Below, piece by piece: positions 390 through 33,972 of a stretch of DNA of 64,000 nt (the stretch's first letter is position 1; every line of letters starts with the position of its first letter). Under the pieces are notes generated by a model that ran no database searches, was not told the origin of the DNA, and was given only the letters and a program-made list of their open reading frames with translations. The stretch covers positions 1-64,000 of the IMG/VR virus record IMGVR_UViG_3300045391_006216; one strand, 5' to 3'. Position numbers and translations under genes: made by a program. Origin of the DNA: a virus.

Positions 390-454
390 GAATCAGGGTT
401 TGAGGGTTGCATCTGGCAACCTAGTTGCCAGATAGGGATCTGAAACCCTCATTC
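390..454. repeat. About 65-bp nested palindromic element, related to the copies at 43317-43457
   Basis: Outer arms GAATCAGGGTTT / AAACCCTCATTC; inner hairpin ATCTGGCAAC-cta-GTTGCCAGAT. Confidence 0.8.
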
Positions 455-1857: not shown

Positions 1858-2142
1858 CTACGCTATCAACTTTTTTTTTACATCATCTTCAAGCACAAGA
1901 GTAATTGGTTTTTTACCATAAACAACGACGGCGTACATTTCTTGAGCGCAAGCCATTGTCATGCCATAAACGTATTCAATTAACTTTAAAATATCAAAAT
2001 AATAAATTCTAGCTCTGGCACATTTAATAATGTCGAACTCGTCTTCATTCAAAGAAATATTTTTATTATCAATAATATCTAAAGTTTCTTTACCTATTTC
2101 GTATTCTGTCATTAATACCACGCGAGTTTGGGCGTCAAGCAT
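1858..2142 (-). CDS. Hypothetical protein
   Basis: 94-aa ORF overlapping the portal stop, likely co-transcribed. Confidence 0.6.
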   Translation of the reverse strand: MLDAQTRVVLMTEYEIGKETLDIIDNKNISLNEDEFDIIKCARARIYYFDILKLIEYVYGMTMACAQEMYAVVVYGKKPITLVLEDDVKKKLIA

Positions 2143-15100: not shown

Positions 15101-18100
15101 TAGCTTCTTCTGCCCCTGCGGCTTGTTTTGCTAATTGTTCGTAGCCAGAACCGACGCGTTCTAGGTCTTTGGGTTTAATTTTAATGTTACCGACAAAAGA
15201 ATCTATAAGTTTAATTCTGGCATTAAGTTCATCAATTTGCGATTGAATATTAGCTTTATTGGCATCTCCTTTTACAGTTTTCAATTGGTCTTGTAAATCA
15301 GCAAGTTGTGAACTTAGTTGTGTTTTCTGTTCCTTAGCTTGAGCAACTAATTTTTGGTTAGCTTTATACTGTTCATCACTCAGTCTAACGCCACGCTTAT
15401 CGGCATCTGATTGAATATCAGAGGCTTTTTTCAAGTCACGAGCAGTTTTGATTGCTTGTTCTGATAATTTAGCAGTGCGATCGCCAAGTATTTCTGTTGC
15501 TTCGTTGGCATCTTTAAGTTGGAGAGAGTACAGACCAATGCCAATTAAACCAATTGCAGCAGCTAGGGCAATTAGTGGTGCAGCGAGTAATAACAAAGGT
15601 GCGATCGCAGTATAAAGAGCGGTGGCAAAAGTAGCAAGTCCTACGGTTGCACCACCAGTGGCCGCGGTCAACCCAAATAAACTGCTAACAGTAATACCGT
15701 TGGCAGCTAAAAATTGTGCAGACGCAACAGTTCCTTGGGTCATAGCGATGCCCAACGCCCTAACTCCAATGGCGGCACTAGAAGCAGAAGCAGCTAGCCC
15801 TACAAACCCCACAGCACTCAATGTTGTTGCTAGACCTGCTAAGATTCCAGCTAAATTTACTGCCCATCCTGCTAAGGTTGTGCTGATTAATTTAGCAATT
15901 GAGGGGATCAGCCCTACATTGATAGCTATGGTTAATCCAACTACCGCTGTTGTAGCAAGAGCAAAAGGATTACCAAAAGCTATTTTTAGCATGTCTGCTA
16001 AAGAACCCAAACCTTGAATAACACCGTAAAGAATTTCTTTAACGGTTTCATTTTGTAGTACAAATTTATCAAAAGCCAGGAACGCTAAGTATGCGCCACC
16101 AGCAAGTAGCCCAAAAGTGAGGATTTGTCCTGCGATCGCAGTACCAATATTCTTGAGAACAGCAGCAAATTGCTGATTGAGCAACAGCACTCTATCAGTG
16201 GCATTGGCGTATAATCCCACTGCATTAGCGGCTTGGGTAAACAATGGAGCTAACGGGGCAAGGTAAATATTTGATGAAACGAAAGCACCAGCCGCGGTAA
16301 TCAAAGCTGGTGTCAGGGTAAGAAGGTTGCTTAAAAATGCCCCTATTGCCGGAAATAAAGTTATTAGCCCAGCAACTTGAATACCAACACCAGCGACAGT
16401 GGGAATAAACCCAACGAGTAATCCACCTAACGGCCCTAAAGCTACGGTTGCCGCTTCTGCCGCACCTGGTATTTCATTGAGGTATTTACCCAAAATTAAG
16501 AATCCGCCACCACCAGTACCAAGGACTTTAGATAAATTGATGAATTGATTTGCCACACCATTGGTTCGTAAATCCAGGGCAAACATCACTTCACCAAGTC
16601 CCGGAACCAGTTGAGTCAAAGTTCCGAAAACGTCGCCCAAGGTTGTCACGCCTACCGATAAAGCTTTGACTGTGACAAAAGATTGTAAAAATACTCCACC
16701 TAATGGGCCAGATGCCTTGACCAACTCTGTCATGAAACGAATTGCCGGCCCCAAAGCTTCTGCTACAAATTTAATTCCCCCTGCTAACGCTTCTGCTGCA
16801 TTAGCCAAAGATTTAAAAAGATATATGGGTGCTTCTGCAATCAATCCACCAACTGAAGAAAACACGGTTTTAGCGGCGTCTACAACTGCCAAACCAACTC
16901 TTAGTATCTGGTCACTAATTAATCCAAAGTAAGTAACAAATTGCTCTTGATTGGTTTTTAAGTAGTCATAAACACTAGTAACTTGTTCAATTAGGGGGTC
17001 GAGCAATCTTTCCCCTGCCCTTCTGCCAATTTCATCGAATACTTCCTGTATGTTACTAATTACACCTGAAAAAGAAGCGGCAGCTAACGCATTTCCAGCC
17101 CGGAAAGGAGCTAGTTTTTTTCGCAACTCCTCAACTAAACGACCTTGAGATTTCCAGTTGTTGACTTGTTCGTTACTAATGTTTAAGCTTTTGGCTAAAA
17201 CAGAATTTTGGTCGATGGTTCCAGATAAAATACTACCTATTTCTTGTCTTGATTGATACAAGGGAATTTGTAATGTACCTAGACTTGCGGCGAAATCTAA
17301 GGATAGGTCTTTGGCATCTGTAAGTTTCCCACCAATACCCGTAATTTGACCAGCAATTTGTTGGTACAGGGGAACTAAATCTTTACTTGTGACCCCGACT
17401 AAATCTAAAGATTCAAGCCTAAGTTTATCGATCGCGGTTTTGATTGGGTCTTCTAGCGATTGAATAGCAGTTTTAGGGTCGATAATTTGTTGTCCAGTAA
17501 ATCCGCTATAAATTTTTGATGTAGCAACTAAAGAAGATTGGGTCGAAAGTAGTTGCTCTCTTAGTTCTATGTTTTGCCCAATCAAAGTCTTGAAGGGGCC
17601 AGTGGTGGCAAACTGTTGGAGGGATGATAAACCTTGACTAAAAAACGCAACCCGCTCTACTACTGAAGAGATGCCATTAGCAAACCCAGCGATTGTATTT
17701 TGTAAATATCCGAATACTTTTAGTGGCTCATTAAACCCAGCGATCGCACCTGGAAATTGGGCAATGGTGTTAAGCGGGGCAGCTATTTTGCTGGGGAGAG
17801 TCGAGAGGGTATTGTAAATTCTAATGGCTGATTTATCAATCGCATCAATGGCAGGGGATACTCGCTCAAAACCAGCTCCAAAAAATCCGGCGAGGAATGC
17901 TCGATTAGCATTTTGTCCAATTCTGCCGAACAAACTAGAAAAAACTCCACCAAACAAACCGTTAATTCTTTCAGCTAATCCCGGAGGAAGTTCAGTAAAA
18001 TTTAAATCAATTTTCAAAATACTACCGATTATCTTGCCGAGGTTTGTTGCAACTACCCCTGCCACTGAACCGAAAGTCCTTCTAATAAAATTGACGACGT

Positions 18101-21050
18101 TGCCAAAACTTGTTTCTAGCGAAGTAACAACAGTATTAAAAATTGGCGTTAGCTTGGTAACAATTGCCCTAGCACTATCAACGGCTTCATTAAAAAATTT
18201 ACCAAATCCGCCTCTACCATTTGCACCTATGCCGACTAAAGCACTATTAATCAGTCCAGTTAAAGTTCTAACTGCACTAGGCACAACCGTATCTATAGCA
18301 TTGATGGTATTACGCAATCCAACGCTTAATCCAGACTGAATATTCCTTGCAGTGCCACTACTAAAAGCAGAAACCGCAGCGATGGCTCCTTGTAGCTTGT
18401 TACCAAAATCAATAAATAATCCGCTTGAATTTGCTACTTTGGTTTGGATAAACGATAAACTAGTATCTGCAATTAACTTTAAATCTGTAAATCTATCACG
18501 GACAAATTGTATTTGTGTAGCAAAGGTTGTTCCAAAACTAGTAGATGTTTGAAGAGTATTTAAAAACGCATCTATGTTAGAAAATCCTTGCCCTAAAGAA
18601 GTTCTTAAACTACTAATTGAACTAGCAATTTGAGCAACTATACTAGGAATTGCAGATTTAATAGAGTCTATTCCTCTAGACGTAAATATTAATAATGATT
18701 GAATGTTTCTATTTGCAATTGCAACGCCAGAGCTAACAGTGTTAAAAACACTTGTAATACCAAGTTTGATATTAGGAATTATATTTTGAGAAAAATTGTT
18801 AAGCCCTTGCAAGAAGTTACGAACATTATCAATGCCACCAATAGTAAAGCCTAAACTTGTGTTGGCGATCGCTTTGATTTTTGCTTGCAAAAACCCTATT
18901 GCTTGAATAGCTTTTTGAATGCCTTCTTGTAAAGCGTCAATTATGCTATCTCCAATAGTAGTACCTCTCAAGCTTTGAAGTGCAATGGAAGCATCAAGCA
19001 AAGTGTTAACAATATTTGCAGATATTTGGTCAATACCGTAGTTAAAATTCATTACAAAATCAATAGCATCTATTTTTAATCCAGTCAATCCTGCATCTGC
19101 ACTAGTTACTAAAGAATTAATCAACGATTGAGTGTTACCAAGAATATTGGGAATTCCTGCGACTCCACTTTTAAACCCACGTAACAGGGTATCAGTTAAT
19201 TTTAACCCGGCGTTAACATTAGTTTTTAAATTTCCAAGCACTCCATCTAAAGCAGCAAAATTAGATTTTAAATTTGCAGGTTTGAGATTTTCCAACAAAG
19301 CATCAAATACAAATCCCGGCGCTCCACTTTCTAGTAAACTGGTTTTAACAACATTTTTTAAATATCCGGGTAAAAATGCTGTTGCGGCAGAAGCTATAGC
19401 ATTAGCTCCTGCATCCTTGAAACGCTTAGTTACATAGTTGGCAGCACTGTCAACCAAAGGAGCTAAAATTACAGGTAATTGTGTATCAATGGCTTTCCCC
19501 AAACTTGCGGCTACTGCCCTACCTAAAATTGCATCAAGCTGCTTTAATCCAGGGATTTGGCCTTTAATACCTGTAACTTTAAAAAGTTGTTGAATAATGC
19601 CGTCAAAATCCAGCAGTTGATCAACAATTGCGCCAGGTACAGGGACAAAAGAAGTAATCAAATTTTTAATCTGGTCGTTTATAAGCCCTGATAGCACCCC
19701 TCCTCTAGAACTACTTAATAAAGGTAAATTGCTAGTTCCAAGTCCTAGACCTGCGGTAAATTTTGCCCCTACACCATCAAAAGTACTACCCAAAATTTCA
19801 CGGCTTCTTTGATTACGTTTTTTAATTTCTGGGTCGAGTCCATCGAATAATCGATTGGCTAATCTAACTCCTGAATTGTAAGCTACATTTTCTACAGAAG
19901 TATTAGTTAAATTAAATAGATTTCCTAATGGTGCTGATATACCTTTTTGAGTAACTTTTAATAAAGCATCGCTAAAAGAACCATTTAATAAATCTTGAAT
20001 TGAAGAAGAAAGCACACTTTTAACAGCAGAATTTTTCAGAATACTTTTAACCAATCCAGTGGAAACATTGTTACCTAGAACTTGTCCAATTCGCTGATCG
20101 ATTACAAAATTTGCTATTTGAGAATCTAATTTAGCAAAGCCACTAGTTGTCTCAATTTTTAAATTTGCTAGTACTTCTATTTGATTTTTCAATCCACTTT
20201 GGTTTAATAAATCAGCGAGTGGCTTGAATTGTGAACTTTTAATTTGTTGAGAGATATCAAGTAGTAAACTATCAATTGCACCTGCCGTAGAACCAGTAAG
20301 TAAAGATTTAAGAAAAGTAGGAGAATATTGTGCGATCGCTGGGTTAGTAGCAATATTTTTAATAATATCTTGACTTGTACCTTCGCCAATTGCTAACCCA
20401 AAAGTAGCATCAATAATACTTTGTGATAATTGCTTGTCTAATCTCTGAGCTATTTTACCAACAATTTTTAACCCTTCATTGTCAAAAGTTCCCAGAGCAT
20501 TTTTTAAAGGATTAAAAACTTTTTCGCCAATACGTCCAACACCTAGACTAATGCCATCATCTAGTTGTTGAGAAATACTACGAGTATCAAGGTTAAATAA
20601 TTTTTGACTAAACCCAGCACCAATATTAGTCCCAACAGAACTAACTTCTTTAAGTAAACTACTAAGAGGCGCTAATTCTTTGGTCGCTTCTTCAGCAGAT
20701 TGTTGTATTTGCCCAATAAAAGTTTGACCAATTGGCGACTGAATACCTTCTTTAATTTTACCAACTACTGAAGTTAATCCAACAAGTTTAGAGATTGCGC
20801 CTCCCAAAGCGCCAGTAGTTGCTACACCCAATCCAATGATAGCTACACTAGTGTCAGTTACCTTAACTCTAGTTAAATCTGCATAGTTAATGACAAATTG
20901 TAACGCCTGTCCAGTTCCAATTAAAGATTTAGAAAGTATCGCGGTTTCTTTATTTAGATTATTAAAAGAAATACCAGTTTTTTTAATTACATCACTGGCA
21001 ACATCTTTGGCTTCTATAACTACTTGAACTTTATTATTTGATGTTGCCAT
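12177..21050 (-). CDS. Tape-measure-like protein, 2957 aa
   Basis: N-terminal V.VVIEAKD.AS; long A/G/L/I amphipathic region; central tape-measure-like segment (EIGSILSG.IDQNS.LAK.L); hydrophobic segments; C-terminal coiled coil. Confidence 0.8.
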   Translation of the reverse strand: MATSNNKVQVVIEAKDVASDVIKKTGISFNNLNKETAILSKSLIGTGQALQFVINYADLTRVKVTDTSVAIIGLGVATTGALGGAISKLVGLTSVVGKIKEGIQSPIGQTFIGQIQQSAEEATKELAPLSSLLKEVSSVGTNIGAGFSQKLFNLDTRSISQQLDDGISLGVGRIGEKVFNPLKNALGTFDNEGLKIVGKIAQRLDKQLSQSIIDATFGLAIGEGTSQDIIKNIATNPAIAQYSPTFLKSLLTGSTAGAIDSLLLDISQQIKSSQFKPLADLLNQSGLKNQIEVLANLKIETTSGFAKLDSQIANFVIDQRIGQVLGNNVSTGLVKSILKNSAVKSVLSSSIQDLLNGSFSDALLKVTQKGISAPLGNLFNLTNTSVENVAYNSGVRLANRLFDGLDPEIKKRNQRSREILGSTFDGVGAKFTAGLGLGTSNLPLLSSSRGGVLSGLINDQIKNLITSFVPVPGAIVDQLLDFDGIIQQLFKVTGIKGQIPGLKQLDAILGRAVAASLGKAIDTQLPVILAPLVDSAANYVTKRFKDAGANAIASAATAFLPGYLKNVVKTSLLESGAPGFVFDALLENLKPANLKSNFAALDGVLGNLKTNVNAGLKLTDTLLRGFKSGVAGIPNILGNTQSLINSLVTSADAGLTGLKIDAIDFVMNFNYGIDQISANIVNTLLDASIALQSLRGTTIGDSIIDALQEGIQKAIQAIGFLQAKIKAIANTSLGFTIGGIDNVRNFLQGLNNFSQNIIPNIKLGITSVFNTVSSGVAIANRNIQSLLIFTSRGIDSIKSAIPSIVAQIASSISSLRTSLGQGFSNIDAFLNTLQTSTSFGTTFATQIQFVRDRFTDLKLIADTSLSFIQTKVANSSGLFIDFGNKLQGAIAAVSAFSSGTARNIQSGLSVGLRNTINAIDTVVPSAVRTLTGLINSALVGIGANGRGGFGKFFNEAVDSARAIVTKLTPIFNTVVTSLETSFGNVVNFIRRTFGSVAGVVATNLGKIIGSILKIDLNFTELPPGLAERINGLFGGVFSSLFGRIGQNANRAFLAGFFGAGFERVSPAIDAIDKSAIRIYNTLSTLPSKIAAPLNTIAQFPGAIAGFNEPLKVFGYLQNTIAGFANGISSVVERVAFFSQGLSSLQQFATTGPFKTLIGQNIELREQLLSTQSSLVATSKIYSGFTGQQIIDPKTAIQSLEDPIKTAIDKLRLESLDLVGVTSKDLVPLYQQIAGQITGIGGKLTDAKDLSLDFAASLGTLQIPLYQSRQEIGSILSGTIDQNSVLAKSLNISNEQVNNWKSQGRLVEELRKKLAPFRAGNALAAASFSGVISNIQEVFDEIGRRAGERLLDPLIEQVTSVYDYLKTNQEQFVTYFGLISDQILRVGLAVVDAAKTVFSSVGGLIAEAPIYLFKSLANAAEALAGGIKFVAEALGPAIRFMTELVKASGPLGGVFLQSFVTVKALSVGVTTLGDVFGTLTQLVPGLGEVMFALDLRTNGVANQFINLSKVLGTGGGGFLILGKYLNEIPGAAEAATVALGPLGGLLVGFIPTVAGVGIQVAGLITLFPAIGAFLSNLLTLTPALITAAGAFVSSNIYLAPLAPLFTQAANAVGLYANATDRVLLLNQQFAAVLKNIGTAIAGQILTFGLLAGGAYLAFLAFDKFVLQNETVKEILYGVIQGLGSLADMLKIAFGNPFALATTAVVGLTIAINVGLIPSIAKLISTTLAGWAVNLAGILAGLATTLSAVGFVGLAASASSAAIGVRALGIAMTQGTVASAQFLAANGITVSSLFGLTAATGGATVGLATFATALYTAIAPLLLLAAPLIALAAAIGLIGIGLYSLQLKDANEATEILGDRTAKLSEQAIKTARDLKKASDIQSDADKRGVRLSDEQYKANQKLVAQAKEQKTQLSSQLADLQDQLKTVKGDANKANIQSQIDELNARIKLIDSFVGNIKIKPKDLERVGSGYEQLAKQAAGAEEAILKSSGDSAIFKQKAEELLSATEKQAEAGQISADEAIRRYNLVATNAFASQELQDKAQQGITAAFKRESDKRISIVQAQQSAISAQLALGRVDYEQNAKAISDAQNSLLKSRLDAENELHQTKLKQIQKEFDDQTFVNNSLLKQKQDEAAKLSAQGQDASAPLAQAETLKAKIIQIEKDKNAALISENTRNTRISSELSSQIAENEISANLVAADLRIKVNKGIISQELAAEKQLTFAKKVELETQLRNTNDNYSERRKIIERDFANTTKYLEDEIAKKQSEASKAPANSPALAAAQSDISALNTKLINSNKAKTASLLLLEQNYKTEVTKINADIQKNQADSAEKESAIQIKILERNQKKALDAVQIAQNERLIQIQQLENKGLLDRTEVEEKKTQASKVNIDAQLNQERLRLKALQALPKPKNQEKAADFDAQIRASQLKIQDLVKQSLSAELTLYKQHIEVIKSQIKDEDNIRETQLESQARKGLVTQAQVNEELARRKVSALEKEYNLETRDASKRIELALAIEKAKTALLDAEIKTRQEKLEVENQKLKNQIDEQNQSIKRQGDLYQILTKAIEQRNKLLEVSRDLAKAGTDFVLGELEVLSSVERSEYRRKQLAEVTASIKLQSLRQQQEYERQSLLNQLEQNKLALEQEAIQNRINQGQKLADIAGVKADIAVMEADPRNQSVAGQAKIKALQIKLQSEVDALGFLQAEGGLISQKFQGQQTQAQAQLEQLNLKQNLDTLKARAELANALPPGKQQQSQRQLQQEIAQLFGQKNIREFYNAAIAQSRGIAAKEFPISSTPDILAAISPNLGGILDMVGGQAATAAIGDATKTFDKEYGNTANITGALTTGIAKTPLQTPLEVQRAQSLSQQILGQVNQPISLVQDASLKLPAPSERTATLSLESSGKLFKQGVDKLVDYLKPLTNQANNTYNIKIDAPTQNLAATGSGSNVSLEKVLDYAKQMAGAY

Positions 21051-21053
21051 AAA

Positions 21054-24000
21054 TTATTTATTTTTGATTAGATTAGATAAATTTTGTTGAATACTTTTGA
21101 CTGTATCTGATATCTTTTCAGGAGATTCAGCAACAAAATCTGAGAAGTCGATTAATTTTTCATCTACTGTCTTTAAAGTTTTAGAAACTGTACCTTGCCC
21201 TAAAAATACACCTAGCAATTTAGCTTCATGGGCTAGCGTTTCTTTAATCTTTTCTTTACGGGTCAGTTGTTGTTTTTTAGTTAAATTACGATGCCCTTGT
21301 TTAACCAGTCTAGATGTCCTCAGATATGCTCTTTCTAAATCTTGTCCTAATCCACCAATGGTTTGAGACACAGCACCTCTACCAAGTTTTGCAGATATTT
21401 TTCTAGGATCGAATTCTTTAATACGACATTTACGACCAACTGGTAGGCAAATATCACCGCAAGGATTTCCGGTTTTACATTTTTTAATGAAATCAAGATG
21501 TATAAGTTCTTTTTCTAATCTATAAGCTTCTGAGTCTAATTTAGACGTATTCAACTTTTGTTCTAAAACTTGAATCAATTTGTCAGTATTTCTGTAGTTA
21601 TTTTCTATGTTTGTAATTGTTGAATACTTTTTCAATAAATTCCAATCTCCTTTCTCATGCTTGAAATAAGAAATGTACCTACTTTTAATTTCGTCAACAG
21701 TATGTTCGCTGCGGAGTTTTTTAAGAGTTTTTAAGTATTGCGATAAAGCGTTGCGTTCTGACAAACTAATTTGTCCAACATCTAAGTTTTTAAAATTATC
21801 TAGAGTTTTTGAGGATAGGTTTCGCGTAAAAGCTAATCCATTATCTATGCCATTAAATGAATTTGTTCTAGAGTCATATATTAAATTTTCAGACTTCCTA
21901 TCCCAATTGCCAATAAAAGTGTCAAATGCTGCGATTTTAGGTAGGTCTGAATGTTTTGATAAACCTAAAAGCATTGCTGGAGTTAAGCCCGACTGCTGCT
22001 TGATATTAAGATTTTCAAAAGCAGAATTTGAATTAGTTTTTAATTCAGCTAATGTTTTTCCGGGAACGATGGAGTGCAAGGATGCCCCAGCAAATCTTGT
22101 TTTTAATGGAGATTTAAGGTTTGCTGGAATTAAAGAAACTTTATTGATATTAATGCTTGATTTTTGAGCAATATCAGAAGCAGTAGCTTCTGAAGCCGCT
22201 TCTAAAAGGTGGAAGTTGTGCCTCACTTCTTTGAAAACAAATCTTTTGTTGCTAGCATCTTTAACAAATAAAGCCTTACCAATTGCTCCTTGTTTCGGAG
22301 AAGTACCATCTGGTTTTAATTTGTTGAGATATTTTTGATTGACAATTTGTAGCTGATTATCTGCAAGTAACGGAACGTCAAATTTAGTACCTAAATATAT
22401 AGCAGCGATCGCACCTGCACCTCCCACAGTTCCAATTGCTGCTGCCGTCGTTGTACCAGTAATTGCGGCATTTATGTGGCAGGTATTGGCTTTTGGAATA
22501 CAAATTTCGCCGCAGTTTTTAGTATCTGTGGAACATTGCGGAGTTTTATCTGAGTCTTTGCGCTTCCCAATTCTGCGTCTTACTTCTTCAGGGGAGCCTT
22601 GATAATATCCAAAAGCCTCTCGGATGGCATCCCTAACTCTCTCATCGCTCAAATAATCCCTAGCAGAACCGCCTGCAACAGAGCTAATCCATTGTTGCCT
22701 TGCGCCTTCTCCAAAAGTAGGAAGAATTGATATTGGGTCTTGGGGACTAATAATGGTGCGCTGTCGGCGAGATACATTTTCTGCAAATCCAAAATGTGGA
22801 GTTCCTAGATAAACAGCATTTACTTGCTCCATTACTTTTTTCCCGGATGGACTGCCTTTAAGTTCCATACGAGAAAGAATTTCTAGAGCCTCTTTAGTTA
22901 CCAGTCCCCCATTGCAGTGGGCCACTATATTGATTTTTTTGCTTCTGTTGACCAAAGTTTTGCCATCTTGGGGAGAAATGGCGATCGCATGAGCATAGAT
23001 AGAAGCGGCCAAATCAACCGCATCTTGATTGCGCTTGCGAGCAAAATTTTGGATTATGCCACCCACGCCATTAACCACAGTACTGGCGATTCCTGGTTCT
23101 CCGCCTCCTTCAGGTTGGGGTGTACCAAATTCTTTCAAATTAAAAGGAATCACGTAATTGCTATGGGTTAACCAGTAGTCTTTGGCATTGTCCGCGTTCT
23201 TTTCGCGTTGTAGCAACGATTTCATTTCTTCTGCGCCGTAGCCTTTACCAGACCCAATAGCAAAAGTGATGTTGTCTTGGTTGATGCGTGAAGTCATCCT
23301 TGGTTTGCCATTGGGTAACAAACTAGGTTCGCCGTCCCGTTCAAGTGGGTGTTGCAAATTCAGTTTGCTAGCTTGTTCTTCAGCCATCCTTGCCGATTCA
23401 TTAAATCCTTCACGATAACTTTGTTTCGCCTGTTCGTAGCCCTTGATGGTTCTACCGATGAGAAACGCGCCAACAGCAGCTGCGCTCCAAGAAACAGGGG
23501 AAGTGCTTGCAAATTTAGCCAACGCCTCTAGCTTGCGCCAAACGTCGGCAGTATTTTTGAGCGATCGCTTAGTAGAACGCTCTAGCGGCGTACCTCTACC
23601 CGATAATCCGGCAGACGCAATTGCCTTTGTACTGAATCCAGTACGCTTTGAAATACCACGGGTAATTTTGTCCCGTGATTCTGGTTTTTGATCATAGAGT
23701 TGCAATGTACCTTGTAACTCTTTAATAGTCATTGACCCGTAACCATAGATTCTTTTTTCTTGAGCTTGCTTCCTTAATTCGCGGATGGTGTAGGGAATTC
23801 CAGTTTGTGGGTTAACAATGTATTTGGATTTTACTGGTATGTCATTATTTTCAGGATTTTGAGGTATTGACGCGATCGCTTGGTTTTGTTCAAGTTTGAA
23901 TTGAACTATTGATTGTTTGAGTCTAGCTATTTCGTTAGGCGTTGCAATTTGATTAATTGACAACTTACAGGTATCATTAGCTTCGATGCAAGTATCACCA

Positions 24001-27000
24001 CAACTTATGCCCTTACGGCACTTTTTTTTTAAAATTTTTCTATCTTGTCTATAATAACTATCTAATTTAGCAGAATTTCTACTTAATTTATAAGTGAATT
24101 TATTATCTTTAAATGTAAATTCTAGGATTTTACCAAGACTATCTTGAGCTAATCCAATCACATTGTTATCTAGAGTGATTTTTATACCACCGACTTTAAC
24201 AATTGGCTTACCATAACTCCTAGATAATAATATTGAGAATTGATTTTTGATTTGTTGAAGATTATCATCAGATGAATCTTTAGATACGCGAGATGATTCT
24301 ATATTTTTATTTCGATCAAAATGTTTTATCAGAACTTCTTTAACACTTTCATTTGGAACAGATTCATTAAATATATTACTAGAAACTCCTTTCTTCCAAA
24401 CTCCATTTTCATCGTATAATTTATATGGTGTATTGGAAAAATAACCCATGTGTCCAACCACATTTACAGGTACTTTATTAGGCATTGTTGCCCCATAAAT
24501 TTTATCTACAGGGTCTTTTTTGGGGTCAATTAAACTAATTCCAGATGGAGAAGTTAGCCCAAAATATGGACTACCTGCTGTAACAACTCTAATATCTTTA
24601 ACACCTATTTTTTTAAGGATTTCTTCTGCTTCCCTCACTGGCATTCCTCCGCCAGATTGACCAATTAAATTGATAGGTAATCCAGGGTGTTTTTGATGAT
24701 AAGCATAAGCACGAGCAGCAATTCTCACAGCTACTTCACTTCTACCTTTTGTTAGGTTGTCTTTCAACAAAGCCGAGACAACTTTTTTTAAATATCTAGG
24801 ACTAGCAACAGTATCACCTTGAGCAAAAGAAACTTCTTGCTCTGGAGTTTCAATACCTACAACATGATGGTCGGATAACATTTTGGCAACTTGCAATCCC
24901 ATGTGGTCACCTTCAAGTCCATCCACTGCACCTATCCCACCTGCAAAAAAAGTTATTTGGTGTGCTGGTTTTCCTGTGTTTACACTTGTTACATCGGATT
25001 TAATAGAACTACCAGGCAATTGTTGATCGCTTATTGACCTGAATCCGGTAAAAGTAGTATTAGGAACTTTATAGGTCTTGGCTTGTTCTTTGGCTAGCTC
25101 CGCTGAATTTGAAAACCCTGCTTTAAACCTTGCTTTTTGGATTAAATAGGCCGCTGTTGGTATTCCCATAATTGCAGCACCAGCAGCTATTCCAGACCCG
25201 ATAGCTAACTGATTGCTTGGGTTTTGACTTAATTTAAGATTATTATTTTCTACCTTACAAGTAGACGTTTTAGGAATACAAATATCACCGCAATTATGTC
25301 CAATTTTACATTTAGCTTTATCTATTCTAAATACTGAATCTGCCTTTTTCTGCCCAAAAACTAACCTTTGCATTTGCTGTTGATTAGTAACGGATAGTTT
25401 TCTTCTGATAGTTGCATTTTCTCGAATAGCATTGCTTTTTCCGTAAAAAAATCCTCTAGCTTCTTCGTAAGTCTGGTCTAGTTGTCCATATCCTCGATAG
25501 CCTTTTTTGTAATCATCACCCGCAGGATTTTCAAGCCAGTTATGAACGCTAGGAACATTGAGTGGTTGAAAATTTTGTACCGGAAGTACCATCATTTTAT
25601 CAACTGGTAAAACCCGTTTAATCCCTTCATGGAACTCCTGAGATGCAGTTTTTTCATCAGAAGTATCTTTGTCTTTAGATTGCAATTTTTCCCTAGAACC
25701 AATTGTAACCAATTCATCTTTTTTTAATTCTGTCAATCCAAAATAAGGAGTAGCAATCAAAAATCCCTTAGATTTTATATTTTTTTGTTTTAAGATTTCC
25801 ATTGCTTCTGCTGCAACTATACCACCACCAGAATGCCCAATAAAATGAATGTCTTTATCAGGAAATAATCGTTTATACATCATGGCATGAGCCGCAGCAT
25901 CTATAGCATCAGCATTATTTAGTTTTTGTGTAGCATTATCATAGAGCATTTGAAGGTCAGACTTATACCTAATCAATTCCCTAGCTACAGGTTCTATAGA
26001 TTTATATTGTTCTGAAGTCCGGAGTTTATTATCTCTAAAATCGTTCCAATTTTCCTTACCAACTACATTACCCATAAAGTCATCAAATCCACGGCGACTT
26101 AGATATCCCCGCTTAACTTTTCCACCTTTACCATCATCATCTAATTCCTGTGCCATAATGTCATTCATAGGCAACCAAGTCATTTCAGGTGTAATATTAA
26201 CTTTTTTATTAGTTAAAGGAATTAAACTATGATTTGGCAAATCTGAAGCCATTTGATTTGCTAAACCAAATCCTAATTCTCCATAATCATTAAATCCACC
26301 AATAGTAAAGCCAATACTAGGACGTTTGGGGTCTACAGCATAAACACTGCTACGAGTGACGTTACCTTGAGCATCCCATTTATCAGCTTTAACAATTGCT
26401 GTTTTTTGAGTGTTGGTTAACTTTTCAGGAGGAATATTTAATTTTTTGGATATTTCTTCAGTCATTTGTTTCTCTAAAGCAAAACTTTGAATTTCTGCTT
26501 TTTCTGCTGAAGCTTTAAATCCTTCTCTGTATCTATTACGAAATCCTAAATATGCAGATGCCGGAATTCCAATTAACGCTGCTCCTGCGGCTACAGGGGT
26601 TATCAACCCAATTGCCAGTCCAAGTCCTAAGCTTGTTTTGATTTCTTGGTTATCGTTACTGGGAGATTTAATCGACAAATTTAATCCACTACGGCATTTT
26701 AATTTTGCAGATATATATCCTTTGCCACAGGGCTTACCATCAGCTTTATCTCGACGAATAGAACTTAGTCTTTGTTTGATGAATTCGCGGAAACTACTGT
26801 CTGCAAAATAACTATTTTGTCCGTGGTCTAAAACATTATCAAAATTTTTACCATTAACTCCTCGACCAGTAGTCATTTTAAGGATACCGTCGTGTTTGCT
26901 AACAGCAGTTACTAAATCCCCAGTTCCAGGAATTAATCCAACATCCGGAGAGCCAATAGCAGTAGTTCTCATCTTGATTCCTGCTTTGTGCAGTATTTCG

Positions 27001-27707
27001 TGTGCTTCTTGCACAACTAATCCACCGCCAGAATGCCCCATCAATTGATATTGTTTTTCTGGATAAACTTTTTTTGTGGCAATAATTTTAGCAGCAACAG
27101 ATACAGCGACAGGGTTGTAACCTTTCTCAAAAACTGTTTTGATAAATAAATTTTTAGCTTCTTGTTGTGCTTGTTTTTTAGTAGCTTCGTCTACAGGACG
27201 GGTAGGAACATTAAATTCTGCATAAGATTGAGGTTCTACGTAAAGTCCTTTTATCTCCAAAGATTCAATGTTTTTTCTTAAAACTTCACTTTCTGAGTAA
27301 GCATCTTTAGTACCAAATCCACCTACAGTTAAAATAACCGTCTCAACTTCTTTACCTAAAGTAGGCGCTTTAATATTTTTAGATTCAACTTCAGCACGAA
27401 CAGCGCTAACAGCAAAATTCTCTTGATATCTTTTTCTGGCTTGGTACAACGTCGCTGCCCCAAAAACACCCAAGCCGGCTGCGATCGCAGCCGCACCTAA
27501 TGTTGCTCCAATGGCAACACCACCAGTAACATAGCCTGCTTTATTTTCAGTGGTAGTTTTAGGATTTTTTAGTGTGGCAGATTTAGTTGAGCTAATATTG
27601 CATTTATGCTCTTGAGAAATACAGGTTTCACCGCATAATTTACCTGTATTGCATTTAATAGAATCAAAAACTAATTTCTTTGATTCTAGGTATTCAATTG
27701 ATGACAT
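21054..27707 (-). CDS. 2217-aa modular polyprotein: 6 Cys tags, 4 alpha/beta hydrolases, a HipA/PI3K-like kinase and a Rho-N-like helix motif
   Basis: GHSGGG (about 27030), GHSGGG (about 25830), GQSGGG (about 24655), AHCNGG (about 22915); FDTFIGNWDRKSEN...GIDNGLAF kinase motifs; a hydrophobic Gly/Ala helix precedes each enzyme. Confidence 0.85.
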   Translation of the reverse strand: MSSIEYLESKKLVFDSIKCNTGKLCGETCISQEHKCNISSTKSATLKNPKTTTENKAGYVTGGVAIGATLGAAAIAAGLGVFGAATLYQARKRYQENFAVSAVRAEVESKNIKAPTLGKEVETVILTVGGFGTKDAYSESEVLRKNIESLEIKGLYVEPQSYAEFNVPTRPVDEATKKQAQQEAKNLFIKTVFEKGYNPVAVSVAAKIIATKKVYPEKQYQLMGHSGGGLVVQEAHEILHKAGIKMRTTAIGSPDVGLIPGTGDLVTAVSKHDGILKMTTGRGVNGKNFDNVLDHGQNSYFADSSFREFIKQRLSSIRRDKADGKPCGKGYISAKLKCRSGLNLSIKSPSNDNQEIKTSLGLGLAIGLITPVAAGAALIGIPASAYLGFRNRYREGFKASAEKAEIQSFALEKQMTEEISKKLNIPPEKLTNTQKTAIVKADKWDAQGNVTRSSVYAVDPKRPSIGFTIGGFNDYGELGFGLANQMASDLPNHSLIPLTNKKVNITPEMTWLPMNDIMAQELDDDGKGGKVKRGYLSRRGFDDFMGNVVGKENWNDFRDNKLRTSEQYKSIEPVARELIRYKSDLQMLYDNATQKLNNADAIDAAAHAMMYKRLFPDKDIHFIGHSGGGIVAAEAMEILKQKNIKSKGFLIATPYFGLTELKKDELVTIGSREKLQSKDKDTSDEKTASQEFHEGIKRVLPVDKMMVLPVQNFQPLNVPSVHNWLENPAGDDYKKGYRGYGQLDQTYEEARGFFYGKSNAIRENATIRRKLSVTNQQQMQRLVFGQKKADSVFRIDKAKCKIGHNCGDICIPKTSTCKVENNNLKLSQNPSNQLAIGSGIAAGAAIMGIPTAAYLIQKARFKAGFSNSAELAKEQAKTYKVPNTTFTGFRSISDQQLPGSSIKSDVTSVNTGKPAHQITFFAGGIGAVDGLEGDHMGLQVAKMLSDHHVVGIETPEQEVSFAQGDTVASPRYLKKVVSALLKDNLTKGRSEVAVRIAARAYAYHQKHPGLPINLIGQSGGGMPVREAEEILKKIGVKDIRVVTAGSPYFGLTSPSGISLIDPKKDPVDKIYGATMPNKVPVNVVGHMGYFSNTPYKLYDENGVWKKGVSSNIFNESVPNESVKEVLIKHFDRNKNIESSRVSKDSSDDNLQQIKNQFSILLSRSYGKPIVKVGGIKITLDNNVIGLAQDSLGKILEFTFKDNKFTYKLSRNSAKLDSYYRQDRKILKKKCRKGISCGDTCIEANDTCKLSINQIATPNEIARLKQSIVQFKLEQNQAIASIPQNPENNDIPVKSKYIVNPQTGIPYTIRELRKQAQEKRIYGYGSMTIKELQGTLQLYDQKPESRDKITRGISKRTGFSTKAIASAGLSGRGTPLERSTKRSLKNTADVWRKLEALAKFASTSPVSWSAAAVGAFLIGRTIKGYEQAKQSYREGFNESARMAEEQASKLNLQHPLERDGEPSLLPNGKPRMTSRINQDNITFAIGSGKGYGAEEMKSLLQREKNADNAKDYWLTHSNYVIPFNLKEFGTPQPEGGGEPGIASTVVNGVGGIIQNFARKRNQDAVDLAASIYAHAIAISPQDGKTLVNRSKKINIVAHCNGGLVTKEALEILSRMELKGSPSGKKVMEQVNAVYLGTPHFGFAENVSRRQRTIISPQDPISILPTFGEGARQQWISSVAGGSARDYLSDERVRDAIREAFGYYQGSPEEVRRRIGKRKDSDKTPQCSTDTKNCGEICIPKANTCHINAAITGTTTAAAIGTVGGAGAIAAIYLGTKFDVPLLADNQLQIVNQKYLNKLKPDGTSPKQGAIGKALFVKDASNKRFVFKEVRHNFHLLEAASEATASDIAQKSSININKVSLIPANLKSPLKTRFAGASLHSIVPGKTLAELKTNSNSAFENLNIKQQSGLTPAMLLGLSKHSDLPKIAAFDTFIGNWDRKSENLIYDSRTNSFNGIDNGLAFTRNLSSKTLDNFKNLDVGQISLSERNALSQYLKTLKKLRSEHTVDEIKSRYISYFKHEKGDWNLLKKYSTITNIENNYRNTDKLIQVLEQKLNTSKLDSEAYRLEKELIHLDFIKKCKTGNPCGDICLPVGRKCRIKEFDPRKISAKLGRGAVSQTIGGLGQDLERAYLRTSRLVKQGHRNLTKKQQLTRKEKIKETLAHEAKLLGVFLGQGTVSKTLKTVDEKLIDFSDFVAESPEKISDTVKSIQQNLSNLIKNK

Positions 27708-27718
27708 CAGTTTTCTCT

Positions 27719-28669
27719 CTATTTTTTAGGAGGTCTACCACGCTTTGGTTTGGATGAAGTTTTTGCAGGAGGTAAGCTAGGTGGTGGAACTGGCGTAACT
27801 GTAACTTGCCGAGGTTTAGGAGCTTGTTTTTGTGGATTTGGAGGATTTATTGGCGTAGCTTCTGACTGATTAGTAGTCTTTTTACCAAAAAATGTTTCAC
27901 TGATATTTCTAGCTTTTCTTGTAGTAGTCTTAGCACTATTCTTAGCAGTGGTTTTGATATCTTCCCCAGCTGCTTTTAAGTTGCGCCCAATTGCTCTAGA
28001 CGCATTTTCAGCCCCCGCCACCGTAAGTTCTTTAGCAGTTTCAAATCCTGCCTTGAGGCTCATCTTAGCTCCTGATAAACCTGTTTTTAATTCATCACGC
28101 CCTTCTGTCCCTGCACGCTTTAGTCTTTCGGCAACTGCTTTACCACCTCTTGCTAGATTTTTACGGTTTGCATAAGCTAATCCTCCCGCAGCAGTAGCTC
28201 CAGCGGCTAAGGCAACACCACCAGCAACACCACCAGCAAGAGCAAGTCCACTACCACTTTTGAGCTTGCCTGTGCCCCCACTCCCACCACCATGTTTACG
28301 ACAAACAGAACCTTTGGGCAGGCAAATTTTACCGCACGGCGTACCTCCTTTAGTACACCTAACTTGAGCATCAAGATTTAACATGCCAAAAGTGTATTCA
28401 ACAGGGAAATCACTATCTGTCTTTATGCCATACCCGGCAAGTAAACCTTGGGCATATTCATTTAATTCTGCGGTTTCTTCTTCATGATGTAGAACGCCTA
28501 TATTTTCATCATCGAAAGCATAAGTGTAAAAATCTCCAGAACTTAATAAATTTCCATATATCACCCCATTTTCATCTTCATTTGCAGTTAATACTTGTAC
28601 GGGCGCATCAAATTCTTCTACAATAATCTCCCCAATAGCTTTGTTTCTTTCTGCAATTTGATTAACCAT
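27719..28669 (-). CDS. Cys-tag protein with a hydrophobic helix and a basic/Pro-rich tail
   Basis: CTKGGTPCGKICLPKGSVC; GLALAGGVAGGVALAAG; C-terminal KRGRPPKK (AT-hook-like). Confidence 0.8.
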   Translation of the reverse strand: MVNQIAERNKAIGEIIVEEFDAPVQVLTANEDENGVIYGNLLSSGDFYTYAFDDENIGVLHHEEETAELNEYAQGLLAGYGIKTDSDFPVEYTFGMLNLDAQVRCTKGGTPCGKICLPKGSVCRKHGGGSGGTGKLKSGSGLALAGGVAGGVALAAGATAAGGLAYANRKNLARGGKAVAERLKRAGTEGRDELKTGLSGAKMSLKAGFETAKELTVAGAENASRAIGRNLKAAGEDIKTTAKNSAKTTTRKARNISETFFGKKTTNQSEATPINPPNPQKQAPKPRQVTVTPVPPPSLPPAKTSSKPKRGRPPKK

Positions 28670-28676
28670 AAAACTC

Positions 28677-29348
28677 CTAATTGATGACTGTTCGTAAATA
28701 CTGCATCCCTAGTTTTGATGCTGTTCTTTTAATCACTTCGTGGTGATAGTCTGCTTCTGCTTCATCTATTCTTTTTTTACCTGTAATAATTTGTGTTAAA
28801 TATTCTTTATAAACCTGTTTTTCATATTGTTTATAAGTCGGTTTGACACGCGATCGCCAATAATTTTCATTCCATCCAGTTGGAGGTGGCTTGAGTGAAT
28901 GGCGATAACTGCTAGACACTGCCCTAATCTCTGCCATGTTCACTCTACAAGCAACTTCAACATCTGAAGCCGAAAAACTTAACCCCTTGCTTCTAGCGTC
29001 ATTTTCGCTCCACCCTAAATTGGGGTGATTGTGAGTAACAACCGCACCTCGCATTTGTTGTAAATCTTGAGAAGATAAGTAAACACTGGTTGAATCACCT
29101 CCTTTAGAAACAAGTATTTTACCAGTGGTTGGATGAAAAGCAATGGCTTTCTCTTTTGGTAAGTCTTTAATTTGGTTTTCTACTTTCTCAACAAGAGCGT
29201 TTAACTCTTGAGAATTTAAACGGCATTTATGAATTTTGGGAATGCAAGCTTCCCCGCACCGCTTTGATTTGTTGCTGCACTTGGGATTGAGGTTTTTTAT
29301 ATCCTGGCGAACTTGGAGGTAAGTTTTGACTCTTGTTAGTGCTAGCAT
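28677..29348 (-). CDS. Cys-tag protein with a JAB/MPN-like metalloenzyme domain
   Basis: CSNKSKRCGEACIPKIHKC, then E.A...G..L...G...SV...THNHP...SFSASD. Confidence 0.75.
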   Translation of the reverse strand: MLALTRVKTYLQVRQDIKNLNPKCSNKSKRCGEACIPKIHKCRLNSQELNALVEKVENQIKDLPKEKAIAFHPTTGKILVSKGGDSTSVYLSSQDLQQMRGAVVTHNHPNLGWSENDARSKGLSFSASDVEVACRVNMAEIRAVSSSYRHSLKPPPTGWNENYWRSRVKPTYKQYEKQVYKEYLTQIITGKKRIDEAEADYHHEVIKRTASKLGMQYLRTVIN

Positions 29349-30746: not shown

Positions 30747-30836
30747 GGTATTGGGTGTTAGGTATTGGGTGTTAGGTATTGGGTATTAGGTATTGGGTAT
30801 TGGGTGTTGGGTATTGGGTGTTGGGTATTGGGTATT
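30747..30836. repeat. STRR-like heptamer tandem repeat (GGT[A/G]TT[G/A]) of about 13 units
   Basis: Direct reading; typical of filamentous cyanobacteria. Confidence 0.9.
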
Positions 30837-31761
30837 AGATGCCAATCATGACGTGGCAGCTGTAGCGGCGATAAACCACTAAACCAGCAAACTTGAAAGA
30901 ATAGGCACGATACACCTTAAAAGGGCCAACAGGTTGTAGTGGGCGTGGACGAAAAGCATCGGTGATTCTTGCTTTGAAACAATTGGGGTCGCGCTTATAA
31001 AAGATTGCCAAGTCTTCGCCATTGGGGCCAGCTTGTTCCAATTCAGCAAGTGGTTCGATATTCTTGATACTAGGGTTATTCTCTAAGAAAAAACGCAAGA
31101 CACTTTTTTCTTGGAAATCATTGAGTCGCAATTGAGACATTAAAAAGTCGTAGCGGCGCTCGGATAAAAGTAATGTATCGGGAGCCATTACTTTATTGGT
31201 GGCATTCTTCATACCTTGGACGCCAGCATTTAAAGTCGCAAGTATGGAATTGGCAGAAGTAACGCTGCCATCTAATTTATAAGGTGCTATTGAACGCAAC
31301 CAAGCTGGGTGATTAATAAAACCAGGATTGCCAGTTTTTTTGTCGCCAACTAGCAATAGTTTGTTCATTGTCTCAGTGTAAGCTTGCTGAACAAGAGAGA
31401 TTTTTTGTTCCTCAATTGGTATACCACGGTGTAATGTAGCTGCTATTTCATCTTCATCAAAATAATAACCAGAGCGATATCTAAAAGTACGTTGGTAGTA
31501 CTCATCGCCTACCATATCTACATAAGGTAAATTAGTAGTATCCCCAGTATCTAGCTCAAATGAGCCTACTCCGTCAATACTAGTAAAACTAGTAGTTTGT
31601 GCCCAAGGCGCGTTAATTTCTTCTATTTGAAATAACTTTCCTGAAGCTGCCTTATATTCTGGCAGCATTCGTTTCATCACTTCTGTTTCTTTTAATTCTA
31701 GTTGTTGCTCAAATGCCCCTACAGTTGGAGCATCTAAGCGAATTTGCGATGAAATTCCCAT
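30835..31761 (-). CDS. Major capsid protein (DUF2184-like, HK97 fold)
   Basis: 308 aa; LP.VD, Y....EI, N..LL.GD....PG.IN.P, PDTLLL, AG..G.D.AI.Y, AG...YR; synteny with protease and decoration genes. Confidence 0.85.
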   Translation of the reverse strand: MGISSQIRLDAPTVGAFEQQLELKETEVMKRMLPEYKAASGKLFQIEEINAPWAQTTSFTSIDGVGSFELDTGDTTNLPYVDMVGDEYYQRTFRYRSGYYFDEDEIAATLHRGIPIEEQKISLVQQAYTETMNKLLLVGDKKTGNPGFINHPAWLRSIAPYKLDGSVTSANSILATLNAGVQGMKNATNKVMAPDTLLLSERRYDFLMSQLRLNDFQEKSVLRFFLENNPSIKNIEPLAELEQAGPNGEDLAIFYKRDPNCFKARITDAFRPRPLQPVGPFKVYRAYSFKFAGLVVYRRYSCHVMIGI

Positions 31762-32655: not shown

Positions 32656-33972
32656 TTACCTACTTAAAGACAAAGGTTCTTGCCAAGCACTAGCTAATGA
32701 TTGAGCGCGTTCGTTTTGACGAGTTTCAGCTATTGAAGCACTTGGAATTCTTGCAATTTTAATCATGTCTTGCAGCGTGCTATCTGTATGTGGTTCTTCT
32801 TCCTCATCTTCTAATGAACTTTGTAAATGCATAGCATCAAAAAGCCCCTCCACCCAACCAGAAGAATAACCACTCAAATCTGTTTCAGGCAATAGTTCTT
32901 GTAAAGTTGAACGCCTGATTAAATCTGCATCTAAACCGTCAGAATCAAATCTTGAATCGTCAAAATTTTCACCTAATAACACTTCGGCTTTTCTTAAGGC
33001 AGAGACAATTTGAGCTACTGAATCAGTTTTTTTAGTTTTGCGTTTGGAAGGGAGTTGCTCTTCTTGTTCTTCTTGATTGTCGTCTTCTTCATCTTCAGGT
33101 TCTTCCTCCCATTCCTCATCAGGCATAGTTTTTTTGGATTTCTTACTTGCTGTAAATTCAGCAGAATCAGAATTCCAGGTATATCCTTGTTCTTCAAGAA
33201 TAGGGATGGCAGAATCAACAACTTCTTGATAAGCATCAGCGCGACCCATGAGGCGATCGCGTTCTTCTTCTAGTTGTTTTATTTGAGATTCAAGACTATC
33301 AAGTTTTAACTTCGCTTTTTCATATTCACTGATTTTTGCCCCAACTACGGAAGCAAAAATTTCTGGAATTTCGTCATAACTAACACTATCAATAGTTACT
33401 CTTGCCATAGGTTTTTTAAATTCTTGAACTTCAAAACCAACATCTTTATCCCCTAAGTCGCTATCAAAATGAATTGCAACTTCTTCACCAGCTCTACCTT
33501 TTCGAGTAATAGCAATGTGGTTAATTTCTAAATCTGTCTGAATTGCGTCGTATTTTTCACCTTTCCATACACCAGGACAATGAATAATATTGCATTTATA
33601 ACCAGCAGAAATTTGTACGGATTCTCTATCGCTAATGCTTTTTACAGTTTCGCTGTCAAGAACCGTAATTACTCCTCTTACGAAACCATTTTCATAAACA
33701 ACTGTGGAATCAGTTAACCCAACAGAATATTGCTTGGCGTTTTGGGAATTGATTAGTTCGCGTGGATGCTCAAAGGAAATTGGCTTTAGCCCAAAACTGG
33801 TTAAAGCTTGCTTGTTTGCTTCGGGAGTTCTCAACTCGCGGCGAATTGTGCCATCGAGATTACGATATTGCAAAACACCGTCTTTAGCAAAAGTTGCTTC
33901 AGCACGAAAATATCCTTCCGGCGTAAACTCATGTTTTTTTGTTGTTGTTCCGGCATCAAACCTAATCGCCAC
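32656..33972 (-). CDS. Prohead protease/scaffold (DUF2213-like)
   Basis: TPEGY, G...Y, LTSF..KP...EHP, ISAGY, G.W.G..YDAIQ....NHIAI..KGRAG; acidic coiled-coil C-terminus. Confidence 0.9.
   Translation of the reverse strand: MAIRFDAGTTTKKHEFTPEGYFRAEATFAKDGVLQYRNLDGTIRRELRTPEANKQALTSFGLKPISFEHPRELINSQNAKQYSVGLTDSTVVYENGFVRGVITVLDSETVKSISDRESVQISAGYKCNIIHCPGVWKGEKYDAIQTDLEINHIAITRKGRAGEEVAIHFDSDLGDKDVGFEVQEFKKPMARVTIDSVSYDEIPEIFASVVGAKISEYEKAKLKLDSLESQIKQLEEERDRLMGRADAYQEVVDSAIPILEEQGYTWNSDSAEFTASKKSKKTMPDEEWEEEPEDEEDDNQEEQEEQLPSKRKTKKTDSVAQIVSALRKAEVLLGENFDDSRFDSDGLDADLIRRSTLQELLPETDLSGYSSGWVEGLFDAMHLQSSLEDEEEEPHTDSTLQDMIKIARIPSASIAETRQNERAQSLASAWQEPLSLSR

Follow-up and report, generated by a model that had tools for sequence, protein, structure and literature searches.

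A short cysteine motif, here called the tag, heads the modules of a 2217-amino-acid (aa) polyprotein and recurs in four other proteins encoded by the first 64,000 nucleotides (the window) of IMG/VR virus record IMGVR_UViG_3300045391_006216. The tagged proteins can be described as virion-borne, exchangeable enzyme cargo that is delimited by the tag and probably cut by a head protease, a description well supported by comparative evidence and by the proteomics of a relative. The tag itself, about 22 residues long, may be an autonomous hairpin with paired cysteines that serves as a generic stabilising cap for these protease-cut modules. This overall reading is the preferred one and is held tentatively, at a little under even confidence.

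The window is the first part of one 100,096-bp contig, whose gene content is that of a cyanosiphophage. A six-frame scan with the regular expression CG-x2-[CYFWH]-[ILVM]-x4-6-C returns exactly ten copies, in the window and in the whole contig alike. All lie on the minus strand and inside five open reading frames (ORFs), which encode the portal, the MuF-like protein and proteins of 223, 316 and 2217 aa. The CG codons are at positions 1519, 3820, 21461, 22514, 24002, 25292, 26729, 27635, 28336 and 29258. Block-shuffled DNA gives a mean of 0.8 copies (maximum 4), and residue-shuffled proteins give 0.001. A first-pass annotation had reported ten copies in five proteins at approximate positions, most of them opening a new module; the scan recovers matching ORFs and positions, and every one of the ten copies is placed at a module start.

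The tag has two forms. Seven copies carry four cysteines (Cys1 to Cys4) in the pattern C-x5/6-CG-x2-C-[IL]-x5-C. The other three, in module 2 of the 2217-aa protein, in the portal and in MuF, read GKPCG-x2-[YF]-I-x5-C and are missing Cys1 and Cys3. Six copies belong to the polyprotein, which is laid out as follows.

21054..27707, minus strand: the 2217-aa polyprotein, with six tag-headed modules (four of alpha/beta-hydrolase, lipase-like type, one HipA-like kinase and a C-terminal tail).
27600..27653, minus strand: tag 1 (4-Cys), heading module 1 (26748-27707), followed by a transmembrane-like (TM-like) Gly/Ala-rich helix at aa 57-89 and a hydrolase with the motif G-H-S-G-G-G.
26694..26738, minus strand: tag 2 (2-Cys, GKPCG form), heading module 2 (25320-26747), directly after I-R-R-D; TM-like helix at aa 356-375.
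25257..25310, minus strand: tag 3 (4-Cys), heading module 3 (24042-25319), directly after F-R-I-D; TM-like helix at aa 834-854.
23967..24020, minus strand: tag 4 (4-Cys), heading module 4 (22554-24041), directly after Y-R-Q-D.
22479..22535, minus strand: tag 5 (4-Cys), heading module 5 (21492-22553), which consists of a TM-like helix and the HipA-like kinase.
21426..21479, minus strand: tag 6 (4-Cys), heading the C-terminal tail module (21057-21491), a 135-aa tail.

Of the 23 cysteines in this protein, 22 fall in tags. Modules 1 to 4 are paralogous. In each, a linker of about 25-35 aa joins the tag to a membrane-type helix rich in Gly and Ala, behind which lies an alpha/beta hydrolase. Their nucleophile elbows (G-H-S-G-G-G twice, G-Q-S-G-G-G and A-H-C-N-G-G) are those of alpha/beta-hydrolase lipases or esterases. 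Module 4 matches the Pfam family DUF676 over aa 1588-1644 (30.7 bits, cut-off 20.3), and the other hydrolase modules score below threshold. Module 5 matches Pfam HipA_2 at 4e-4 and phrog_3162 at 1e-7. The elbow of module 4 has a cysteine where modules 1-3 have serine; this residue (1598, window 22914-22916) is the sole cysteine of the protein outside the tags.

Evidence that such proteins are carried in the virion is provided by related phages. The nearest described relative is Aphanizomenon phage vB_AphaS-CL131 (CL131), with identities of 48% for the portal, 65% for the capsid and 41.5% over 2000 aa for the tape measure (gp049). Planktothrix phage PaV-LD and Synechococcus phage S-CBS4 come next, and a megablast search of the region against phage records found no match. 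In CL131, tags are present in gp044, gp045 and gp047, and five more in gp048. PaV-LD has one tag each in seven proteins, of which one has an ART domain and two are annotated virion proteins. The 223-, 316- and 2217-aa proteins are homologues of gp044, gp045 and gp048, with 48-53% identity in the aligned parts (49%, 48%, and 53% over 571 aa, respectively); module 4 is 57% identical to module 5 of gp048. In CsCl-purified CL131 virions, liquid chromatography with tandem mass spectrometry detected ORF012 (the portal), 044, 045, 046, 047, 048 and 049, with 123 peptide-spectrum matches for ORF045, and 105 peptides and 55% coverage for ORF048 (PMC6293099 SI Table 5). Because these homologues were detected in purified virions, the tagged proteins are taken as virion components, and homology supports the presence of the 223-, 316- and 2217-aa proteins in the particle.

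The residues ahead of the tags point to cleavage. In this phage, CL131 and PaV-LD, a hydrophobic residue followed by R-x-D and then A or S is found 6-17 residues from the N-terminus of the capsid, the portal and the DUF2213 protease. Almost every tag in the three phages has this hydrophobic-R-x-D motif as well, 3-12 residues ahead of its first Cys. Within the clade, [RK]-x-D precedes Cys2 by 7-20 aa in 63 of 85 tags, compared with 12% of background windows, the sequences being related to one another; the remaining tags mostly have hydrophobic-x-D upstream. Capsid, portal and protease share the motif at their N-termini, so cleavage of the polyprotein probably takes place immediately ahead of each tag. 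The pattern also suggests that the head protease is Asp-specific.

The tag could itself be the processing element, presenting each junction to a peptidase that splits the cargo into single enzymes. The head protease, the JAB/MPN-like 223-aa protein and the HExxH domain of the portal are candidates for this peptidase. Genes for a JAB-like protein and a zincin domain do accompany the tags. The placing of tags just past putative R-x-D cuts and at domain borders of polyvalent proteins is in keeping with this. Polyvalent proteins of phages and conjugative elements were described by Iyer, Burroughs, Anand, de Souza and Aravind in 2017, who predicted their processing by linked metallopeptidases (PMC5512222). 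The capsid, portal and protease, however, have the R-x-D site with no tag behind it, and the tag is therefore not required for cutting. Beyond this clade no residue is conserved ahead of the tags, and exported bacterial proteins made of tags alone do not fit a processing role, which is distinctly improbable as the explanation of the tag.

The tag is found in many other phages. A hidden Markov model (HMM) was built from the ten copies and searched against 1.84e9 representative proteins, with 342 matches at E<=1e-3. It brings up hundreds of large phage proteins in which two to seven tags stand between kinase, lipase, ART, NUDIX, InPase and other domains. Genomic context was taken from DNA-pattern scans of IMG/VR and of GTDB (one genome per prokaryote species), whose counts are samples and not a census. 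Among the best 150 of the 342 HMM matches are 78 large proteins of 400-3641 aa, which together contain 239 tags; successive tags are a median of 366 aa apart (interquartile range 281-460). In 50 of these 78 the first tag is at most 50 aa from the start, and 81% of all their cysteines lie inside tags. Of the 239 tags, 89 have a membrane-type helix behind them. Two-cysteine tags are found at Pfam domain borders of polyvalent proteins, beside InPase, ART-PolyVal, PolyA_pol+HD, DUF3990, GNAT, kinase and NAPRTase domains. The IMG/VR scan yielded at least 80 loci, among them many for proteins of 270-640 aa that have a single tag and four cysteines in all; in the 34 complete viral single-tag proteins among the matches listed, the tag starts at median residue 33.

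The cargo behind the tag varies widely. Over 56 tag proteins it includes Pkinase/APH/ABC1/RIO1, DUF676/Lipase_3/PGAP1/Tle3, LRAT, NUDIX, DnaJ, InPase, ART, His_Phos_1, 2'-5' RNA ligase and LPD1 domains. Two genes to each side of viral tag genes, 105 neighbouring ORFs among the matches listed include 11 large terminases, 11 PhoH, 8 tail fibres, 4 members of phrog_220, 3 head proteases, 3 neck proteins and 2 portals. The first-pass annotation had regarded the tags as marks of interchangeable enzyme cargo and had proposed an HMM search of cyanobacterial prophages for variable cargo behind them. The HMM search of representative proteins, together with the IMG/VR scan, finds variable cargo recurring in many phages, and unrelated families follow the tags across the 56 proteins. 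The picture of tag-delimited interchangeable cargo thus extends well past this phage.

Alternately, the tag may be an evolutionary cassette border at which cargo is swapped by recombination, like VENN or pre-toxin motifs, with little biochemical role of its own. The very broad cargo spectrum is consistent with this, and CL131 modules 3 and 4 are 85% identical across the tag alone, with unrelated cargo behind. Portals also show presence or absence of the tag as a clean indel of about 20 aa. For instance, CL131 gp012 is a portal-InPase-MuF fusion that lacks the tag found here between the DUF5754-like part and InPase. Synonymous sites vary, however, among the ten copies in this genome, which argues for conservation by selection at the protein level and not for recent DNA copying, and shared DNA runs of only about 10 nt are too short for homologous exchange. 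The strict covariation of the cysteines and the invariant Gly point to selection on a fold, and the domain is also found by itself, as an exported protein. A border for recombination is thus the main function of the tag with very low probability.

The pattern of cysteine loss provides evidence about what the tag is. In 321 tags, Cys2, the Gly next to it and Cys4 are invariant. Cys1 and Cys3 are both present in 205 and both absent in 116, with at most 1 mixed case. Where they are absent, the Cys3 position is occupied by F, H, Y or W; a comparison of His at this position with His after Cys4 in the 321 tags, as in a C2H2-like site, showed no correlation. The joint loss of Cys1 and Cys3 with Cys2 and Cys4 invariant indicates two separate Cys pairs rather than one Zn site, since in a tetrahedral Cys4 Zn site two ligands would hardly stay invariant once the other two had gone. 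Cys4 zinc ribbons and knuckles have two CxxC knuckles and four jointly conserved ligands. The tag has neither, its spacing being C-x5/6-C-x3-C-x6-C and Cys1 and Cys3 being lost as a pair. A single Cys4 Zn site is unlikely.

Structure prediction is consistent with a hairpin. Two independent AlphaFold models are available, one of the 223-aa family, with a predicted local distance difference test (pLDDT) score of about 78 over the tag, and one of an eight-cysteine bacterial domain (about 90). Both have a strand, a two-residue turn (G-x) and a second strand, with Cys2 last in strand 1 and Cys3 second in strand 2. By the DSSP register, Cys2 and Cys3 would be on opposite faces. The tag can accordingly be pictured as a hairpin that would turn at the invariant C-G-x-x, with a constant Cys2-Cys4 pair and an optional Cys1-Cys3 pair, in place of which the 2-Cys form has an aromatic residue or His. 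Disulfide pairs that form in the virion or in the periplasm are about an even prospect. Metal binding of some kind is a clearly smaller one, and some other role for the cysteines, neither disulfide nor metal, is smaller again.

The tag also occurs outside phages. Among the matches listed in the bacterial scan, 57 of 79 tag ORFs are shorter than 150 aa and have a signal peptide or lipobox. Most of these small exported proteins end in an eight-cysteine form, CC-x2-C-x2-GK-x-CG-x2-CI-x5-C-x4-GCAC. Others have one or two plain tags directly after the signal peptide, or a tag with an SH3b-like domain, and some are made of tags only. The neighbours of the bacterial eight-cysteine genes are not conserved and are not phage genes among the matches listed, and a tblastn search with a two-tag exported protein found no lambdoid phage match. 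The eight-cysteine family, which has no Pfam or NCBIfam model and is the one modelled at pLDDT ~90 over the motif, is sometimes fused to SNase-like nucleases or SH3b-like domains. Because small exported bacterial proteins without phage context carry it, the tag is not a phage-specific packaging signal. Its presence in proteins exported by the Sec pathway argues for a general structural role compatible with the oxidising exterior of the cell.

These observations bear on the proposal of the first-pass annotation, which was a Zn-binding tag for packaging or ejection. Such a signal would dock modules to the portal, the scaffold, the capsid interior or the ejection channel. Several findings favor it: all ten copies belong to head- and portal-region proteins, homologues are found in CL131 virions, and the portal and MuF, which are located at the packaging vertex, are both tagged here. 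In addition, viral tag genes often adjoin large terminase, portal or head-protease genes, and four cysteines in 20 residues with basic flanks are typical of small metal sites. The CL131 portal, however, has no tag at the equivalent site, which makes the tag dispensable for portal incorporation. One signal would suffice for a polyprotein that has six, 116 of 321 tags keep just two cysteines, and the spacing is not that of CxxC knuckles. Many Sec-exported bacterial proteins with no phage context also have the motif. The first-pass annotation had held that a motif found mainly outside phage head modules would speak against its proposal. This is partly the case, given the 57 of 79 exported proteins among the matches listed, and the part of the proposal that stands is the delimiting of cargo in phages. 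The part concerning zinc and packaging finds no support and is partly contradicted by the loss of the Cys pair and by the exported proteins. A packaging or ejection signal is an unlikely explanation, though a better one than either of the two above, and the hairpin is probably neither a capsid-targeting signal nor a classical Cys4 zinc finger.

The internal proteins of phage T4 offer a useful comparison. IPI-III and Alt have a capsid-targeting sequence that is cut by the gp21 prohead protease. Their short N-terminal leader ends in a head-protease consensus, the same protease trims the capsid protein, and the cargo ends up inside the head, from which it is injected. The possible likeness here is a leader ending in a site common to the capsid protein, a putative head-protease site. 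In T4 the targeting peptide is upstream of the cut and is discarded, whereas the hairpin comes 3-12 residues after the putative cut and would remain part of the cargo, a further point against a targeting role. To our knowledge T4 has no Cys motif and no six-module polyprotein of this kind.

Other known systems share different features with the tag. In polymorphic toxins, among them the MuF-fused ones of temperate phages, short motifs such as VENN and the Rhs motif DPxGL mark the border before variable effector domains on a virion or secretion carrier; the likeness is a short conserved motif ahead of variable effectors. VENN and Rhs motifs are not known to rely on cysteines or to be present in Sec-exported stand-alone proteins, and a protein has a single copy, ahead of its C-terminal toxin. 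Small disulfide-stapled beta-hairpins and Cys4 zinc knuckles or ribbons resemble the tag in having four cysteines in about 20 residues, and a hairpin is predicted here at pLDDT ~80-90. The tag differs from zinc knuckles and ribbons in lacking CxxC knuckles and in that two of its four cysteines are dispensable as a pair.

The closest likeness is to polyvalent proteins. Shared features are multi-enzyme polypeptides fused to or near the portal and MuF, domains of the InPase, LPD1/zincin, ART, kinase and NUDIX types, and the prediction for both that they are virion-borne and processed. The tag HMM also matches InPase, ART-PolyVal and PolyA_pol+HD proteins. Two or more unrelated enzyme domains in one polypeptide, as in polyvalent proteins, are found in the 2217-aa protein and in the portal; hallmark domains of polyvalent proteins are present in the portal and MuF, and none is present in the 2217-aa protein itself. 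The systems differ in that the junction here is a defined hairpin, coupled in this clade to a protease-type site and a membrane helix, and no Pfam LPD model covers the tag. Cysteines, junctions, boundaries or any such motif are not mentioned by Iyer et al. (PMC5512222).

Searches of Pfam-A and NCBIfam gave no model for the tag, not even with proteins built only of tags. A PDB sequence search gave chance matches only, a wide VIA-align fold search with a 40-aa model gave nothing at Z>=2, and an ESM Atlas search gave no usable match. In the literature on GKPCG and on polyvalent-protein junctions nothing relevant was found, in agreement with the first-pass annotation, which knew of no description. 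The tag is thus an apparently undescribed, widespread Cys hairpin mini-domain. The system as a whole is a new form of the known polyvalent or internal-protein cargo strategy, and the hairpin is its undescribed part.

The remaining tagged proteins and the head genes around them are as follows.

27719..28669, minus strand: the 316-aa protein, with an N-terminal domain, an L-N-L-D site, a tag at 28301-28357, a Gly/Ala-rich helix and a basic Pro-rich tail.
28677..29348, minus strand: the 223-aa protein, with a 16-aa leader ending V-R-Q-D, a tag at 29223-29279 and a JAB/MPN-like domain.
2135..5650, minus strand: the portal with fused cargo (InPase and an HExxH/LPD1 region), with a 2-Cys tag at 3785-3829 directly before InPase.
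449..1765, minus strand: the MuF-like minor head protein, with a 2-Cys tag at 1484-1528 after K-T-D and before a phrog_17560 domain and the MuF domain.
12177..21050, minus strand: the tape-measure homologue (2957 aa), directly downstream of the 2217-aa gene and without tags.
32656..33972, minus strand: the DUF2213 head maturation protease/scaffold (phrog_530 at 3e-72, PF09979 at 4e-32), with N-terminus V-A-I-R-F-D-A.
30835..31761, minus strand: the major capsid protein (phrog_264, PF09950), with I-R-L-D-A at residues 7-11.

The 223-aa protein has the JAB/MPN metal motif with an upstream Glu, at a longer than canonical spacing from H-x-H to S..D. In 27 homologues T-H-N-H-P-N, S-x-S-x2-D, S124, S126, D129, E57 and E66 are invariant. 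Its AlphaFold model (mean pLDDT 89.9) has a hairpin at aa 28-37. The best Foldseek matches are RadC 2qlc (E 8.6e-3, probability 0.98), JAMM1, CSN5 and Rpn11, none at E<=1e-3, so the model weakly suggests that the protein is most like RadC/JAMM-type MPN domains. For the 316-aa protein, a jackhmmer search with the N-terminal 100 aa found CL131 gp045 only and no general leader domain. The portal matches Phage_portal_3 at 2e-63, InPase at 1.8e-22 and LPD1 at 1.2e-3 (below cut-off) in Pfam, as well as phrog_220; the MuF domain matches PF04233 at 5e-13.

On the minus strand the genes run from the DUF2213 protease/scaffold through a cement protein, the major capsid protein, a 163-aa gene, the DUF4054 adaptor and a 130-aa gene to the 223-, 316- and 2217-aa proteins, and then to the 2957-aa tape-measure homologue. 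Pfam and PHROG matches and CL131 homology confirm this order, and with it the earlier placing of the tagged genes between adaptor and tape measure in the head operon. Two separate genes at 5650-449 encode the portal and MuF, and they share the strand of the other tagged genes. The tape-measure homologue contains no Cys and has no Pfam or PHROG match despite its homology to the CL131 tape measure. Directly after it (window 11675-12097, minus strand) is a gene for a 140-aa protein with a signal peptide and a match to Pfam Adhesin_E (5e-8).

A model of how the system may work follows from the preferred reading, a stabilising hairpin on virion-borne, cut cargo. The repeat unit would open with a hydrophobic-R-x-D site and continue with the hairpin and then the enzyme, often with a membrane-type helix rich in Gly and Ala between the two. 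First, the 223-, 316- and 2217-aa proteins would be built into the particle with the portal and MuF, in the lumen of the head or tail. The DUF2213 head protease would then cut after the Asp of R-x-D, and each freed enzyme would start with a hairpin. Finally, modules may exit with or before the DNA at infection, lipase-type modules entering host membranes via their helix. Throughout, the hairpin would be a generic stabilising cap or folding nucleus for ends that are kept folded outside the reducing cytoplasm, in the virion or the periplasm.

A number of points weigh against this reading. Virion presence in this phage is read from the CL131 homologues alone, and both the cutting at R-x-D and the ejection of modules are inferred. 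The covariation and enrichment counts come from related sequences, which are not independent, and they therefore exaggerate the significance. The placing of Cys2 and Cys3 on opposite faces comes from the DSSP register and not from coordinates. Phage proteins are made in the reducing cytoplasm, where disulfides cannot form. Many of the cargo enzymes (kinases, ARTs, NUDIX) are cytoplasmic, a disulfide would be reduced there, and metal binding would be more natural. A stabilising cap is also a weak functional statement, and it leaves the recurrence of the tag at internal junctions of uncleaved polyvalent proteins unexplained. Lastly, some tag-headed phage kinases are encoded outside head modules. 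One of them, gp162 of the isolated cyanomyovirus Synechococcus phage S-CBWM1, an APH-like Ser/Thr kinase, starts with a 4-Cys tag and sits among psbA-type auxiliary genes.

A stronger role for the hairpin would be that of a portable, required delivery handle, for docking or threading in capsid loading and ejection, or that of a redox-switched cap; such a role is doubtful at present. A redox-switched cap would be oxidised while in the virion or the periplasm, would become reduced at entry, and could so time the activity of injected enzymes. Either role would be common to Sec-exported bacterial proteins and phage-ejected effectors, and a handle for loading and ejection would allow chosen proteins to be put into phage particles. 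If the hairpin is a stabilising cap only, it is a useful annotation and not a new mechanism.

In either case, the hairpin is a widespread mini-domain with no entry in Pfam, NCBIfam or the PDB, and many exported bacterial proteins have it as well. If it reliably marks virion cargo, it would allow injected effectors (kinases, lipases, ARTs, NUDIX enzymes and others) to be recognised by sequence in the genomes of uncultured phages, and it would give exact module borders for their expression and testing.

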